Of a DNA stretch of 9,186 nt, positions 1 through 9,186 are shown in pieces. The translations under genes and the position numbers were made by a program. The DNA comes from a virus. Lineage: Duplodnaviria; Heunggongvirae; Uroviricota; Caudoviricetes. Each line of letters starts with the position of its first letter. The stretch's first letter is position 1. The stretch lies in IMG/VR virus record IMGVR_UViG_2548876943_000020. One strand, 5' to 3'. The notes beneath the pieces are model-generated. The model was not told where the DNA came from and ran no database searches. It saw nothing but the letters and a program-made list of their open reading frames with translations.

Positions 1-159
1 TACATCAACGCCGGGTATTTCACGGTGAAAGAAGTGGTGCTGGATGATGAAGATGGTTACCAGATACGGCTGACGCCCCAATTAACGGGTAAAGGCCAGC
101 AGTGGTTAACTCGCAAGCTACTTGATGCTGGTTTGTTAAAACCAGTAGCGGCTGAGTGA
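1..159 (+). CDS. 3' end (last 52 codons plus TGA) of an unidentified conserved protein-coding gene; partial, continues upstream of the window
   Basis: Frame 1 is open from the window edge and ends ...GKGQQWLTRKLLDAGLLKPVAAE*. The same 52-aa C-terminus is encoded in inverted orientation at 9028..9186 with only synonymous differences, which argues for a real, selected coding sequence. Confidence 0.5.
   Translation, partial: YINAGYFTVKEVVLDDEDGYQIRLTPQLTGKGQQWLTRKLLDAGLLKPVAAE
1..159. repeat. Left arm of an imperfect inverted repeat (partner 9028..9186)
   Basis: Reverse complement of 9028..9186 aligns colinearly with 1..159 with no gaps. The outer 54 nt are identical; the inner 105 nt carry 13 synonymous codon differences plus TGA versus TAA. 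Similarity stops exactly at the stop codons. Confidence 0.9.
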
Positions 160-166
160 TTAAATT

Positions 167-189
167 AAAAAGGCGGCCTTTCGGCCGCC
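167..189 (-). terminator. Intrinsic terminator-like hairpin downstream of the protease/scaffold gene
   Basis: Plus strand is AAAAA then GGCGGCC-tttc-GGCCGCC. On the minus strand this is a 7-bp GC stem followed by a U5 tract, about 45 nt after the stop at 235. Confidence 0.45.
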
Positions 190-234
190 AGTGATTTCAG
201 ATACCCCGGCAGCCGCCGGGGTTATTTTTGGTGG

Positions 235-1254
235 TCAATTAAACGGATTGATTGAATTATTAAACGTGATGATGCTTGTCTCACGCGGTGCCTGGACGTT
301 AGCCGCTTGCGGAACCTCCTTAATTTTCTTGGTGACAGGCAAGTTGCGTGCGCCAACTTTGATCAGAGATTCGAAAAGTGTCGCAACGATTTTTGCATCA
401 CCAGGTTCTTTGAGGCGGAATGCGTCTTTTTGGGCGGCGGAGACGAAGATCGGGAGGTTATCCAGTTCGTCTTGCATTGCTGCCAGCACATCGTCGCGGA
501 TACCCGCTGTTTCCTCCAGCAAAGCAATTCGCGCTTCAGCATCTGCGATCTTGGCCATTGCTTCAAGGTGGCGACCCTGGCTTTCGAGTAGTGCGGTTTC
601 CAGTTCAGCCGTACGCTCTGTCGCCTCCACCATCATTTCCAGTTCAGCCATTTTACTGTAATGGGATATAACGGCCTGCACTGACTCGTCAGAGTATCCA
701 TGCGCCGCCAGGGACTCTGCCAGTAGAGATTTAGAATCCGCGCTTTCAAACATTCCGGCGCTGGCAGGATGATCCAGACTGATATAGTTCGGCGTTGTCA
801 CATAATCCACACCATGGAAGCTGGTGGTTACAGCGATTTTCCCGGACTCACGCCCGCCAGTGGCCCAGCTCCAGCCACCAGCTCGGCTTTCGATCATCGC
901 GGCGACAATTTTACCCGGCTCTGTGTTAAGAATTTCCTGTGTATGGGTAACGATGCCGTTGTCGTCAACAGATATAGCCACTGTTCGGCACGCTGGAACA
1001 TTGTCGATTACGACCGGGCGACCTTCCACCATGATCACGCTGGTTTCTGGTACTTCCAGTTTGCCGGTCAGCTGTCGGCGACCGTGACCGTAATAGCCGA
1101 AAAGCTCACCAAGGCGTAAACCTTCCTGAGTTTCCTTGCTTTCAAGCATGGTCTTTACCGCGCTTAATACATACTGTCGCCCGTTCTGGCGACCTTTTCG
1201 AGCATTGCTATAGAGACAAAAGCGGTCAGTGACCGTTTTCAAAACATCAGTCAT
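235..1254 (-). CDS. pro: Phage prohead protease / scaffold-like protein (P1 pro-like), 339 aa from the ATG at 1254; an alternative upstream ATG at 1284 would give 349 aa
   Basis: The ATG at 1254 has the SD AGAGGGA 7 nt upstream and overlaps the portal stop (ATGACTGA), suggesting translational coupling. The N-terminal half looks protease-like and the C-terminal part is a long Ala/Glu/Leu-rich predicted coiled coil typical of scaffolds. It lies directly downstream of the portal gene, as in head modules. Assignment rests on composition and synteny, not a computed alignment. Confidence 0.55.
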
Positions 1255-2956
1255 TATCGTTTCCCTCTTTAAAGACCGATTCAAGGATTTGCGCCAGTTC
1301 CTGTGGCGGTGTTTTGATGATGGAATCCATCAGGTGATCGTCGTCCTCGCTTTTAGCTTTCAGTTCGTTCACCAGTGCTTCAGAGATTTTTTCGTCAATC
1401 TCCAGCACATCGCTGAACAGGTAACGTTTGAATGCATCGGAATTAGCGAGGACGCTGTTATTGCTGACGGCATCGAGGATTTGCGTAACGATGGTGGCGT
1501 AGTTCGCCTGCGAGTCGCGGTTATCGTTGTGCTCTTGTTGCAGAGCGGTATTAACGGAGTGGAATTCGATTTTGTACGGGCGATCACCTTCCGGGTATAC
1601 CTTGCCGTACTTGAAAGCAAGATGAATATCGATAGCCCGCTGAATGAACTCTTCTACGCCCTGCTGGATCCATGAGGCGCGCATGGCGGCCTGAATCGCC
1701 GTGCGCAGGAATCCACCTTCACCAAGCCCGCCGGACATTTGATCTGCCCACCCCAGGAGGGTGTAATCGAGGCCAAGTGCTGCCGCCAGCTGGCGCATAT
1801 AAGTGAGAATGTCTTCAATGCCGTTGATGTCTGCCTGGATGGTCTGAGTATCAATGGTCATCTGCCCCTTGCCGTCGCCCATAATAGGCAGCAGGGTATT
1901 GGTGACCGTAGGCATGTTATTCGCGCCGCGTGCGCGCTTTTCCATCAGGTCAGCTGCTCGTTTAAGCGTCTGAGTAATGGTGCGTGAATAATCGGCTGCT
2001 TTTACCGGATCCAGACTATTCATCGCCAGACCGATGATTCGGTCAATTTTCGACGCATTAAAACGCGTTGCCTTCAGCGAGCGGATCGCCGAACGCAGGT
2101 TCATGTACGGCTCGTAGGCGTATTCGAGCAAGCTGGTCCCGTAATTCTGGGTTTCAATCGGCGTGCGCTCTTCCGGATTATCCAGCAGGCTGTAAGCCTT
2201 ATGGCCAGTGTGCACAGGCATAAGGTTTGACTTAGGCCGCCAGTAGGGGGTTTTCATAGGGATAATGGTCCACGGATCGGCGAAAACCATTTTCCCTGAC
2301 GCGTCCTTCAGATAATCGCCGCTAAATCCCGCCAGGTTACCGCTGACCTCGAACTCCTTGATGAAGCTCGGAAGGGTGTAATAGGAGCACTCAAAAGACG
2401 TGATCCCTATGCCTTCTTTGGCGTATGGCCTGACATAAGCCACCCCAAATACAGACATGATAAATGCCCACCCGGCGACCTCTTTGTTGATGGTTCGCCC
2501 GATGTCGTTCATCAGCTCGTCACACAACCCCTGCGCGGCGTCATAGTCACTATCGTTTCCGTTGTGTACCGGCACGATAGAGAAGGTTTGTCCGGTCTTC
2601 TTATCGAAAGAGAGCGCGTGCGTAATATGGATGTTCAGCGCGGTGGCGATCGTGCTGTAAACCGCCATCTCTTCGAGTAGCGGATAGCGTTGCAAGCGGT
2701 CTTCCGGCAGTTGAACTTCATCAAAGATAAAGCGACTTCCGTCCACCAGCCCATCGCCAGCCATGCCACTATCGCCCGGTTTGCCGCCTAAGAAGCCGGA
2801 CAGTTGTACCGGTGCCCCTGCGCGAGAAAACAAATACCCACTTCCGCCGTGCACAGCCAGCGCGGACAGGAGGATGTTGTCCCGTTCTCCGTTGTCTTTA
2901 AAAACCCCCGCCAGCGCCTTCCTGACCGAGGATAGCGTGATTTTATTGTCTGCCAA
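1247..2956 (-). CDS. prt: Phage portal-like protein (P1 prt-like), 569 aa
   Basis: Long ORF with SD AAGGTG 5 nt upstream of the ATG at 2956. The size and acidic C-terminal tail fit portal proteins, and it sits immediately upstream of the protease/scaffold gene with an overlap. P1 gene order as I recall it places prt-pro in this position. Confidence 0.55.
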
Positions 2957-3031
2957 GATTGCACCTTAATTAGAATAATTCGCATCGTGTTTGAACGGAA
3001 TTTAACACTAGTCACTTGTTAAGGATTACCA

Positions 3032-8069: not shown

Positions 8070-8110
8070 CTATAATGGTGGCCAACAACTCCCAGTGTAA
8101 TCCGCTGTGA
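8070..8110. promoter_or_regulatory. 12-bp perfect inverted repeat with a 17-nt spacer between coi and c1
   Basis: GGCCAACAACTC (8070..8081) and GAGTTGTTGGCC (8099..8110) are exact reverse complements. A TATAAT hexamer sits at 8061..8066 and no U-tract follows. Confidence 0.35.
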
Positions 8111-8143
8111 GTTGTTGGCCATGTCAATTCTGGAGGAGGATCA

Positions 8144-8995
8144 ATGATAAATTATGTCTACGGCGAACAACTGTACCAGGAGTTCGTCAGCTTCAGGGAT
8201 CTCTTTCTAAAAAAAGCTGTTGCACGCGCCCAACACGTTGATGCCGCCAGCGACGGTCGTCCTGTACGCCCGGTTGTCGTTCTGCCGTTCAAAGAAACGG
8301 ACAGCATTCAGGCTGAAATTGATAAATGGACTTTAATGGCGCGGGAACTGGAACAGTACCCAGACCTCAATATCCCAAAGACTATTTTATATCCAGTGCC
8401 TAACATCCTTCGCGGTGTGCGTAAGGTTACAACTTATCAGACAGAAGCTGTGAACAGCGTCAACATGACCGCTGGCCGCATTATTCATCTGATTGATAAG
8501 GACATTCGCATCCAGAAAAGCGCGGGGATCAATGAGCACAGTGCGAAATACATAGAGAACCTGGAAGCAACAAAAGAGCTAATGAAGCAGTACCCGGAGG
8601 ATGAAAAATTCCGTATGCGTGTACACGGCTTTAGCGAAACAATGCTGCGCGTCCATTACATTTCCAGTAGCCCTAACTACAATGATGGTAAATCAGTTAG
8701 TTACCATGTGCCGCTGTGTGGTGTGTTTATCTGCGATGAAACTCTCCGTGATGGAATCATCATCAACGGTGAATTCGAGAAAGCAAAATTTAGCCTTTAT
8801 GACTCTATAGAACCGATCATCTGCGACCGCTGGCCGCAGGCAAAAATATATCGCCTGGCAGATATTGAAAATGTAAAAAAACAAATTGCCATCACTCGCG
8901 AAGAGAAAAAGGTTAAGTCAGCCGCATCAGTTGCGCGCAGCCGTAAAACCAAGAAGGGGCAGCCAGTAAACGACAACCCCGAAAGCGCGCAATAA
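8144..8995 (+). CDS. c1: C1-like primary immunity repressor, 283 aa
   Basis: 283-aa ORF with SD GGAGGAGGA upstream. Length, position downstream of coi, convergent orientation to the flanking gene and the cognate operator motifs in the window all match P1 C1 as I recall it. Confidence 0.85.
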   Translation: MINYVYGEQLYQEFVSFRDLFLKKAVARAQHVDAASDGRPVRPVVVLPFKETDSIQAEIDKWTLMARELEQYPDLNIPKTILYPVPNILRGVRKVTTYQTEAVNSVNMTAGRIIHLIDKDIRIQKSAGINEHSAKYIENLEATKELMKQYPEDEKFRMRVHGFSETMLRVHYISSSPNYNDGKSVSYHVPLCGVFICDETLRDGIIINGEFEKAKFSLYDSIEPIICDRWPQAKIYRLADIENVKKQIAITREEKKVKSAASVARSRKTKKGQPVNDNPESAQ

Positions 8996-8998
8996 ATT

Positions 8999-9020
8999 AT
9001 GCCCGGCATCAACCGGGCAT
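8999..9020. terminator. Hairpin between the convergent c1 and right flanking gene
   Basis: ATGCCCGG-catcaa-CCGGGCAT, an 8-bp stem directly after the c1 stop, followed by a weak T-rich tract. Confidence 0.35.
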
Positions 9021-9027
9021 TCTTCCA

Positions 9028-9186
9028 TTATTCAGCCGCCACCGGTTTTAACAAGCCAGCATCGAGCAGTTTACGCGTCAACCACTGCTGGCCTTTACCC
9101 GTTAATTGAGGCGTCAACCGTATCTGGTAGCCATCTTCATCATCCAGCACCACTTCTTTCACCGTGAAATACCCGGCGTTGATGTA
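9028..9186 (-). CDS. 3' end (last 52 codons plus TAA) of the same unidentified gene as at 1..159; partial, continues beyond the window
   Basis: The minus-strand frame encodes the same 52 residues as 1..159, with 13 synonymous codon differences and a TAA stop. Confidence 0.5.
   Translation of the reverse strand, partial: YINAGYFTVKEVVLDDEDGYQIRLTPQLTGKGQQWLTRKLLDAGLLKPVAAE
9028..9186. repeat. Right arm of the imperfect inverted repeat (partner 1..159)
   Basis: See the left arm. Homology ends exactly at the stop codon and identity is perfect at the window edge, so the repeat probably extends beyond the window. Confidence 0.9.

Follow-up and report, generated by a model that had tools for sequence, protein, structure and literature searches.

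Two additional immI-type cassettes with different C4 RNAs bracket a segment of a P1-like phage-plasmid

The stretch of DNA analyzed here, 9,186 nucleotides (nt) from the IMG/VR virus record IMGVR_UViG_2548876943_000020 (referred to throughout as the window), begins and ends with inverted copies of the same gene end. It comes from a P1-like phage-plasmid and covers the stretch between two extra immunity cassettes of the immI type, each with a C4 RNA followed by the genes icd and ant; the last 159 nt of each ant fall within it. One judgement is given for this account as a whole, covering both the parts that can be seen directly and the immunity role inferred for the cassettes, and on that footing the account is considered likely.

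Over its full length the window matches the Escherichia coli plasmid pAUSMDU00014361_02 (NZ_CP045829.1, 100,217 bp) at 99.9%, and 11 further complete E. coli genomes match it at a coverage of at least 80%. Against P1, P7, and other Punavirus genomes, matches of 95%–99% cover parts of it. The P1 proteins located in the window by tblastn are those of pro, prt, a stump of darB, lxc, mat, ref, c8, cre, cra, imcA, imcB, coi, and c1. With 8 kb of flank from NZ_CP045829.1 the order reads ssb, lyz, lydD, the left icd and ant (rightward), pro (leftward) through c1 (rightward), the right ant and icd (leftward), and then pacB and pacA (both leftward). The gene order of the window and its flanks is colinear with phage P1.

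Positions 1–159 and the reverse complement of 9028–9186 both translate in frame 0 to the same 52 amino acids (aa), YINAGYFTVKEVVLDDEDGYQIRLTPQLTGKGQQWLTRKLLDAGLLKPVAAE, followed by a stop, as stated in a preliminary description of the window. The two ends differ at 14 nt. Thirteen of the differences are synonymous, 12 at third codon positions and one at the first position of a Leu codon (CTG/TTG), and the remaining one lies in the stop codon, TGA on the left and TAA on the right; that there are 13 synonymous codon differences and differing stops had also been described correctly. Synonymous sites make up 23.5% of these codons, and random placement would yield 13 of 13 synonymous changes with P = 6.7e-9. 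An outer stretch of perfect identity had been put at 54 nt; it exists but extends over 56 nt, with the first difference at nt 57. Identity falls to chance level directly after the stop codons, and each side then has its own hairpin (172–189 followed by 203–222 on the left, 8999–9020 on the right), both as previously noted. The left hairpins fold with −37.2 kcal/mol (z = −3.95) and the right hairpin with −18.3 kcal/mol (z = −4.63). The matching ends form the sole inverted repeat found in the window, with arms at 1–160 and 9027–9186 that are 91% complementary and 8866 nt apart. The features that define the two borders, and one related hairpin, are:

1–159, plus strand: 3′ end of the left ant, last 52 codons and TGA; the rest of the gene lies upstream of the window.
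172–189, no strand: G+C-rich hairpin GGCGGCCTTTCGGCCGCC, brought by the left cassette; 167–199 forms a direct repeat with 4956–4988 (85%).
203–222, no strand: hairpin with T-run, ACCCCGGCAGCCGCCGGGGT TATTTTT; P1's own lydD/pro intergenic terminator and the inner border of the left insertion.
4961–4978, no strand: second GGCGGCC-N4-GGCCGCC hairpin, native to P1 just upstream of ref.
8999–9020, no strand: hairpin ATGCCCGGCATCAACCGGGCAT, in the gap that separates the stops of c1 and the right ant; part of the right cassette junction.
9028–9186, minus strand: 3′ end of the right ant, last 52 codons and TAA; the full gene is at L001 17028–18146.

Extension of the window on both sides, which the preliminary description had called for together with a protein search, reveals an inverted repeat of 1350 nt with 95% identity (L001 6811–8160 and 17027–18376; L001 and L002 are loci of NZ_CP045829.1). 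The repeat spans icd and ant, an Icd-like open reading frame (ORF) of 73 aa and an Ant of 372 aa. Both Ant proteins carry the ORF6N (PF10543) and KilAC/ANT (PF03374) domains by Pfam, with scores of 109.8 and 107.7 bits for PF03374 (cut-off 25.3) and 69.8 and 70.1 bits for PF10543 (cut-off 27.8). The complete left ant occupies L001 7041–8159 in NZ_CP045829.1 and encodes 372 aa (PF03374, 1.1e-31; PF10543, 2.5e-19). The arms differ at 66 of the 1350 positions. In ant, 26 synonymous and 7 nonsynonymous codon differences separate left from right, giving a ratio of nonsynonymous to synonymous substitution rates (dN/dS) of ∼0.087. The earlier view of two gene copies under purifying selection thus extends to the full genes (dN/dS ∼0.09), and so does that of convergent paralogues, as two complete ant genes point toward each other around the 8.9-kb block. 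The differences are patchily distributed, with 20 in the first 100 nt, 0 over 356 nt in the middle of the repeat (L001 7347–7702), and 10 in the last 50 nt; those in icd are concentrated in codons 2–9. A third icd-ant pair is found at the canonical P1 position beside kilA-repL, where Ant is 348 aa long and has the KilAC domain and a different central region.

Comparison with related genomes had also been proposed earlier, and it was made with P1, where neither slot holds an insert: pro overlaps lydE/lydD, and pacB lies 24 bp from c1. The left cassette is situated after the lydD stop and before the terminator hairpin that P1 has between lydD and pro (window 203–222), and the right cassette occupies the pacB-c1 gap. 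Both slots being empty in P1, the 8.9-kb block is ordinary P1 backbone in its ordinary orientation, and the cassettes are additions to it. The canonical immI position, between sim and kilA-repL, is taken by the third copy alone (sim, c4-icd-ant, kilA-repL) and by neither of the bracketing cassettes.

This layout bears on the idea, in part implied earlier, that a P1-like module had been integrated into a gene in the manner of a prophage, duplicating the gene end or carrying a replacement for it. The duplicated gene end around a phage-like block does resemble the attL/attR duplication of gene ends. Such att duplications are, however, direct repeats, and those of the window are inverted; moreover, both copies are complete genes with their own leaders, and everything outside the window is also P1 backbone (lyz-lydD on one side, pacB-pacA on the other), so that it is the cassettes, and not the block, that are inserted relative to P1. 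Integration of this kind is given almost no credence.

Junction queries were run against 5,426 complete E. coli genomes and 72,556 PLSDB plasmids, and they matched ∼850–1,000 P1-like records in these two sets; the counts below are for a coverage of at least 80%. The right junction (c1, cassette, pacB) occurs in 249 of the E. coli genomes, spread over many serotypes. The left junction (lyz-lydD, cassette, pro) occurs in 14 of them and in 11 PLSDB plasmids, 6 of which are from Escherichia albertii. Both cassettes flank the window in 12 independent complete E. coli genomes, and the P1 gene order is present in all six plasmids that were read in detail (NZ_CP045829.1 and five more). Short-read assemblers can be led astray by inverted repeats of more than 1 kb, and a repeat-induced mis-join had been considered as the origin of the arrangement. 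Against such an artifact stand the 12 complete genomes and the 6 E. albertii plasmids with the left junction, which come from different laboratories and countries, as well as the colinearity of both outer flanks with P1. The 66 differences between the arms further indicate that they are not a collapsed repeat. Mis-assembly is therefore dismissed as exceedingly improbable.

It had also been suggested that the block might be invertible by homologous recombination. Repeats of 1.35 kb in inverted orientation would allow the immC-lox-cre-portal block to be flipped by RecA, perhaps aided by Ref, with an effect on regulation or packaging. The arms are long and include the 356-nt identical tract; identity over 356 nt should suffice for RecA-dependent recombination. 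Coding alleles have, in addition, moved between the slots (see below), which double crossovers or successive inversions could bring about. Yet an artificial inverted junction (lyz-lydD-repeat-c1) was found in 0 of the 5,426 E. coli genomes (native, 14) and in 0 of the 72,556 PLSDB plasmids (native, 11), and the P1 order holds in each of the six plasmids. The block neither contains nor adjoins an invertase gene, and Cre is present with no second lox site in the window. Inversion would also shift loxP from ∼1.6 kb to ∼7.2 kb from the pac-proximal repeat, a displacement of ∼5.6 kb away from pac, which is probably unfavorable for Cre-mediated cyclization. The arrangement resembles the C-segment of P1 with its invertase Cin insofar as a DNA block lies between inverted repeats in a P1-type genome; it differs in that the repeats are 1.35 kb of coding sequence instead of short crossover sites, in the lack of an adjacent invertase, and in the lack of an inverted isomer in the E. 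coli genomes or PLSDB. Inversion is accordingly regarded as quite unlikely. Nothing was found to suggest that the inverted geometry itself has a functional role; it arises because two independent insertions happened in facing orientation.

The organization of the cassettes points to immI. Each has, in order, a C1 operator, a σ70-like promoter, the a1/b1 sites, a C4 RNA, the a2/b2 sites, icd, ant, and a hairpin. One match to the Rfam C4 family (RF01695, gathering score 45) lies upstream of each icd on the same strand:

L001 6690–6775, plus strand: C4 RNA of the left cassette, 68.4 bits.
L001 18419–18506, minus strand: C4 RNA of the right cassette, 75.9 bits.
L002 23241–23326, minus strand: C4 RNA of the canonical cassette, 70.8 bits.

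The left and canonical leaders match c4-a1b1 (RF03163), and the right leader matches isrK (RF01394, 60.8 bits, gathering score 50). At the start of the left cassette stands a predicted C1 operator that matches the consensus perfectly, ATTGCTCTAATAAATTT, at L001 6489–6505, and an inverted site overlaps it at 6505–6521. The right cassette opens with a predicted C1 operator with 2 mismatches at L001 18683–18699 (minus strand), beside the pacB stop. By sequence, 12 C1 operator sites were counted, compared with 0.08 expected by chance. The promoter-like element TTGATC-17-TATAGT aligns with the P51b promoter of P1. At the other end of the leader, icd overlaps the start of ant by ATGA (L001 7041–7044), and an internal AAGGAGGCACA-AGAATG, resembling a ribosome-binding site followed by ATG, is present in all three copies except for a single base, which is T in the canonical copy and C in the other two. 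This internal start appears to correspond to that of Ant2, and translational coupling of icd and ant and a nested Ant1/Ant2 pair are thereby predicted.

Two features of the leaders are recorded separately. The overlapping, opposed operators of the left cassette (L001 6489–6521, ATTGCTCTAATAAATTTGATTTATTAGAGCAAAT) form a double site, where the P1 operator Oc4 is annotated as single (monovalent); they could provide tighter control of the cassette by C1. Next to pacB, an "ash family protein" pseudogene (L001 18389–18706, minus strand; weak Pfam match, E = 2.9e-6) overlaps the C4 and isrK-like elements and may be a translation artifact of the RNA leader rather than a decayed gene.

The cassettes differ in the loops of C4 and their targets. 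The positions of a1, b1, a2, and b2 were taken from the P1 GenBank annotation, and loops and targets were compared at homologous positions:

Left cassette: b′ loop CACAATC (P7-type), a′ loop CTGTCAA (P1-type), a sites TTGACAG, b sites GATTGTG.
Canonical cassette: b′ loop CGTAAGT, a′ loop CTGCTAA, a sites TTAGCAG, b sites ACTTACG.
Right cassette: b′ loop CCTTGGAC, a′ loop AGGCCAA, a sites TTGGCCT and TTGGTCT, b sites GTCTAAGG.

The three C4 RNAs differ in both the a′ and b′ loops, and each is exactly complementary to the sites of its own cassette. The b2 site always abuts the GAGG (Shine-Dalgarno) of icd, and the predicted C4 folds place b′ in a hairpin loop and leave a′ unpaired. Exact three-way complementarity of 7–8 nt is found in 20 cassettes of the P1 and R types (from P1, P7, JL22, and the six plasmids), the one exception among them being a right cassette with its upstream sites beyond the end of the locus. 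A second R-type variant, with b = GCAAAAGG, is also exactly complementary, and over the 21 cassettes from these sources loops and targets co-vary perfectly. In NZ_CP077509.1 (L009, ∼45640–46010, minus strand), the pacB-c1 slot holds a second divergent C4, with the targets ATTGAGACC and GCAAAAGG and the same isrK-like leader; the right slot therefore likewise comes in several specificities.

A pattern scan of IMG/VR recovered at least 120 P1-type c4 loci, with at least 7 b′ alleles, at least 2 a′ alleles, and at least 12 combinations. Among the 120 matches listed, a site exactly complementary to b′ occurs on the downstream side in 118 and on the upstream side in 119; for a′ the figures are 119 downstream and 117 upstream. 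One contig, UViG_2703718869_000013, has four P1-type c4 genes. Within an element, the (b′, a′) pairs are distinct in 13 of 13 multi-cassette elements (the 6 plasmids and the 7 IMG/VR contigs listed). When whole C4 RNAs were folded as duplexes with a2/b2 leaders, the stems were opened and energies of −37 to −44 kcal/mol were obtained for nearly all P1-type pairs; since these values are so alike, specificity was judged site by site at the a and b positions.

Leaders and coding parts of the cassettes have different affinities. In a three-way alignment, the leader of the left cassette is 85%–95% identical to that of the canonical immI, and its coding part is 95%–100% identical to the right cassette, up to the last ∼50 coding nt, which are those of the canonical/P1 ant allele save for the final three codons and the stop. 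The left cassette is thus a mosaic, which explains why the synonymous differences are heaped at its far 3′ end. Its canonical/P1 allele also accounts for the 98.7% match of the first 149 nt of the window to the P1 immunity-region record X17512. The similarity between the arms stops ∼12 nt upstream of icd and at the ant stops because the effector is common to both, and the leaders and 3′ junctions differ.

The icd-ant coding parts fall into two classes, ∼88% identical, either of which may be found in either slot, and the leaders are slot specific. NZ_CP077509.1 has class A on the left and class B on the right, and NZ_CP077484.1 has the reverse. The plasmid matching the window, NZ_CP045829.1, has class A in both slots, and for this reason its repeat is 95% and not 88% identical. 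As the coding classes swap slots while the leaders stay, leader and effector reassort by recombination at a boundary just upstream of icd. The synonymous divergence would then reflect allelic icd-ant lineages under purifying selection, with the slots reshuffled by homologous recombination.

A fourth slot is used in NZ_CP077484.1 and NZ_AP042542.1, where a further c4-icd-ant cassette lies between c8 and mat and replaces ref. In these plasmids, with four cassettes each, the fourth is at L010 6254–7713 (minus strand; NZ_CP077484.1) and L011 43579–45044 (plus strand; NZ_AP042542.1), with b′ CATGTAC and a′ CTGCTAA. The hairpin at 172–189 of the window, together with ∼10 nt beyond it, is a variant of the P1 hairpin upstream of ref (window 4961–4978; P1 nt 2046). 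A matching hairpin stands behind ant in the fourth-slot cassettes of related plasmids. This shared hairpin suggests that the left cassette was copied from the c8-mat slot with a few bases of flank. Microhomology or a target-site duplication at the borders (TGATTT on the left, TTATTCA on the right) was considered as well, and these motifs are too short to be told from chance; the left TGATTT more probably came along as flank of the hairpin in the c8/ref region.

In P1, C1 represses the lytic genes and Ant1/Ant2 inactivates C1; the trans-acting C4 RNA pairs at the icd ribosome-binding site and blocks Ant synthesis, and the heteroimmunity of P1 and P7 stems from differing C4 loops and targets (PMC8546580, PMC12197685). 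As every sequence feature of this mechanism is present, we infer that both extra cassettes would be working, self-repressing antirepressor units, each answering to its own C4 alone. Each C4 would block translation of its own icd-ant only, giving three mutually heteroimmune antirepressor locks per plasmid. A prophage with three C4 RNAs would be immune to relatives that carry any of these locks, since each C4 acts in trans. Conversely, an infecting phage with three Ant units would escape a resident that lacks any one matching C4, because an Ant not covered by the resident's C4 could inactivate C1; stacking would thus widen the range of resident immunity that can be broken.

A broader proposal can be built on this. 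Up to four cassettes would occupy four fixed slots (sim-kilA, lydD-pro, pacB-c1, and c8-mat), each locked by an antisense RNA from a combinatorial code (at least 7 b′ and at least 2 a′ alleles, plus the divergent R types); leader and icd-ant would reassort independently, stacking would be selected in an arms race between related phage-plasmids, and the inverted repeat of the window would be a by-product of two acquisitions. We give this proposal slightly less than even credence.

Several observations weigh against the favored account or narrow it. Random draws from the IMG/VR allele pool, among the matches listed, give all-distinct sets with P = 0.15, and in one contig a b′ allele recurs in two cassettes that differ in a′; non-redundancy of the specificities is therefore not statistically significant, and no claim of selection for it is made. 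The plasmids examined are related and so are not independent samples. The a site is common to some cassettes, which may permit partial cross-repression. The ORF6N-type Ant is homologous to P1 Ant in the N-terminal ∼83 aa and the C-terminal KilAC domain, and its central ∼130 residues are unrelated to P1 Ant (23%–53% nt identity); its role as an inactivator of C1 is putative and follows from homology. Finally, a right-slot ant in NZ_AP038984.1 (L012 48387–49504, minus strand) is frameshifted, an instance of cassette decay, and not every copy is maintained.

That decayed gene and the P value of 0.15, along with the highly mosaic nature of P1-like plasmids reported in PMC6906374, would also fit extra cassettes that are redundant debris of recombination between co-resident P1-like plasmids and prophages, neutral and with no part in immunity. 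Other findings speak against debris: both ORFs are intact with dN/dS of ∼0.09 in ant, C1 operators and promoters are retained, nearly all cassettes retain three-way complementarity of loops and targets, and the right cassette occurs in 249 genomes that span many serotypes. A lysogen would be harmed by an ant left unrepressed, so that its control elements must work or the gene would decay. Debris is considered unlikely, and functional antirepressor units remain the preferred explanation.

The immI operon of P1 and P7, c4-icd-ant1/ant2, is known from the work of Citron & Schuster 1990 and Heinrich et al. 1995, as cited in PMC8546580 and PMC12197685. The cassettes described here share with it the operator, the promoter, a1/b1, C4 (RF01695), a2/b2 over the icd ribosome-binding site, the icd-ant overlap, and the nested Ant2 start, and they share the homologous Ant N terminus (∼83 aa) and KilAC domain, the last 150 nt of the left ant being 98.7% identical to P1 ant. 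In contrast to P1 and P7, which have one cassette, there are three per genome here and up to four in relatives, including the non-canonical positions lydD-pro and pacB-c1. Further differences are the replacement of the central Ant domain by ORF6N and the C4 loop alleles, which are unlike those of either P1 or P7: the left cassette joins a P1 a′ allele with a P7 b′ allele, and the right one has a divergent C4 with an isrK-like leader.

An ant insertion between pacB and c1 and icd-ant homologs in the region RD-1 (in pTZ20_1P, RCS47, and pSvP1) are recorded in the portion of Venturini et al. 2019 available to us (PMC6906374). The right cassette corresponds to that pacB-c1 insertion, and the fourth-slot cassette of the relatives to the RD-1 homologs. 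In that portion of the paper, the extra genes appear as annotation only, and C4 RNAs, specificities, the lydD-pro slot, and the inverted geometry are not mentioned. The right cassette is also reminiscent of the isrK-orf45-anrP antirepressor module of Gifsy-1 in Salmonella (Hershko-Shalev et al. 2016, in the summary given by PMC12197685): as far as that summary goes, an isrK-type leader precedes a small ORF translationally coupled to an antirepressor gene in both. It differs in that a C4 RNA separates its isrK-like leader from the small ORF, in the placement of the unit behind a P1 C1 operator, and in the lack of an antQ-like gene in the right cassette. Nothing on the lydD-pro slot, the C4 RNAs that come with the cassettes, the differences in their specificity, or the inverted-repeat layout turned up in the searchable literature, where Venturini et al. 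2019 was the sole source found to note the extra ant genes; an earlier description in subscription papers is possible. The pacB-c1 ant insertion is thus already known, and the stacking of cassettes with different C4 specificity appears undescribed.

The genes enclosed by the cassettes are listed below; mat, ref, c8, cre, cra, c1, and the other immC genes were placed by comparison with P1 proteins.

235–2956, minus strand: pro (235–1254) and prt (1247–2956), head-processing and portal genes; proteins 99% identical to P1 Pro and Prt.
3032–3184, plus strand: darB remnant, first 51 codons, from tblastn with P1 proteins.
3269–3517, plus strand: lxc, TTG start; protein 100% identical to P1 Lxc.
3557–4308, minus strand: mat-like gene, split.
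4387–4947, minus strand: ref.
5193–5504, minus strand: c8.
5555–6586, minus strand: cre.
6583–6978, minus strand: extra 131-aa ORF between cra and cre.
6998–7219, minus strand: cra.
7409–7442, minus strand: loxP, exact 34-bp match and sole copy in the window.
7631–8995, plus strand: immC region, with imcA (7631–7741), imcB (7763–7855), and coi (7824–8033).
8144–8995, plus strand: c1; C1 is 99.3% identical to that of P1.

The gene lxc (bof), which encodes a co-repressor of C1 and belongs to immT, is unannotated in the RefSeq record of NZ_CP045829.1. Around it, at 2957–3560, the window has a large deletion relative to P1: ∼14 kb of anti-restriction and restriction-modification genes are reduced to ∼0.6 kb, and ulx, mod, and res of P1 are absent from this interval. 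At the darB site, related plasmids have SIR2, PIN-domain, or type III restriction-modification genes or an intact darB; given this varied content, the darB/mod/res site is a variable hot spot of defense and anti-defense genes. P1 Mat matches the window in two pieces in different frames (aa 1–44 at 4308–4177 and aa 31–250 at 4219–3560), which suggests a frameshift or an altered N terminus; just a 213-aa hypothetical protein is annotated in this region in RefSeq. The 131-aa ORF overlaps the start of cre by 4 nt, is without counterpart in P1, and gave no Pfam match. It corresponds to WP_000481733.1 and is found at the same position in four of five related plasmids (L009, L010, L012, and L013) and is absent from L011. 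Elsewhere, NZ_CP045829.1 also carries cnf3 (cytotoxic necrotizing factor 3) between insertion sequence fragments (L002 12895–15936) and a HipA-family toxin gene (yjjJ, L001 2526–3830); with these two genes, this phage-plasmid is a vehicle for toxin genes.

Much of what is seen here is ordinary phage mosaicism, to which the different antisense-RNA specificity of each cassette adds a mildly interesting twist; as an extension of the known immI cassettes, the stacking of different specificities is plausible, though unproven. A puzzling inverted duplication resolves into two complete extra P1 immI units and is neither artifact nor integration scar nor switch. Among natural P1-like phage-plasmids, many have more than one immI unit, with antisense RNAs that differ exactly at the loops and their targets. 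If stacking is indeed selected in an arms race, each cassette would extend the immunity of the prophage and give an infecting phage another key. In pathogenic E. coli, P1-like elements are frequent, and resistance and toxin genes travel on them. Should the units prove heteroimmune, they would help to set which P1-like elements coexist, exclude, or induce one another, a matter of relevance to the epidemiology of plasmids and to the use of vectors derived from P1, and they would constitute a natural set of orthogonal RNA repressor/target pairs.

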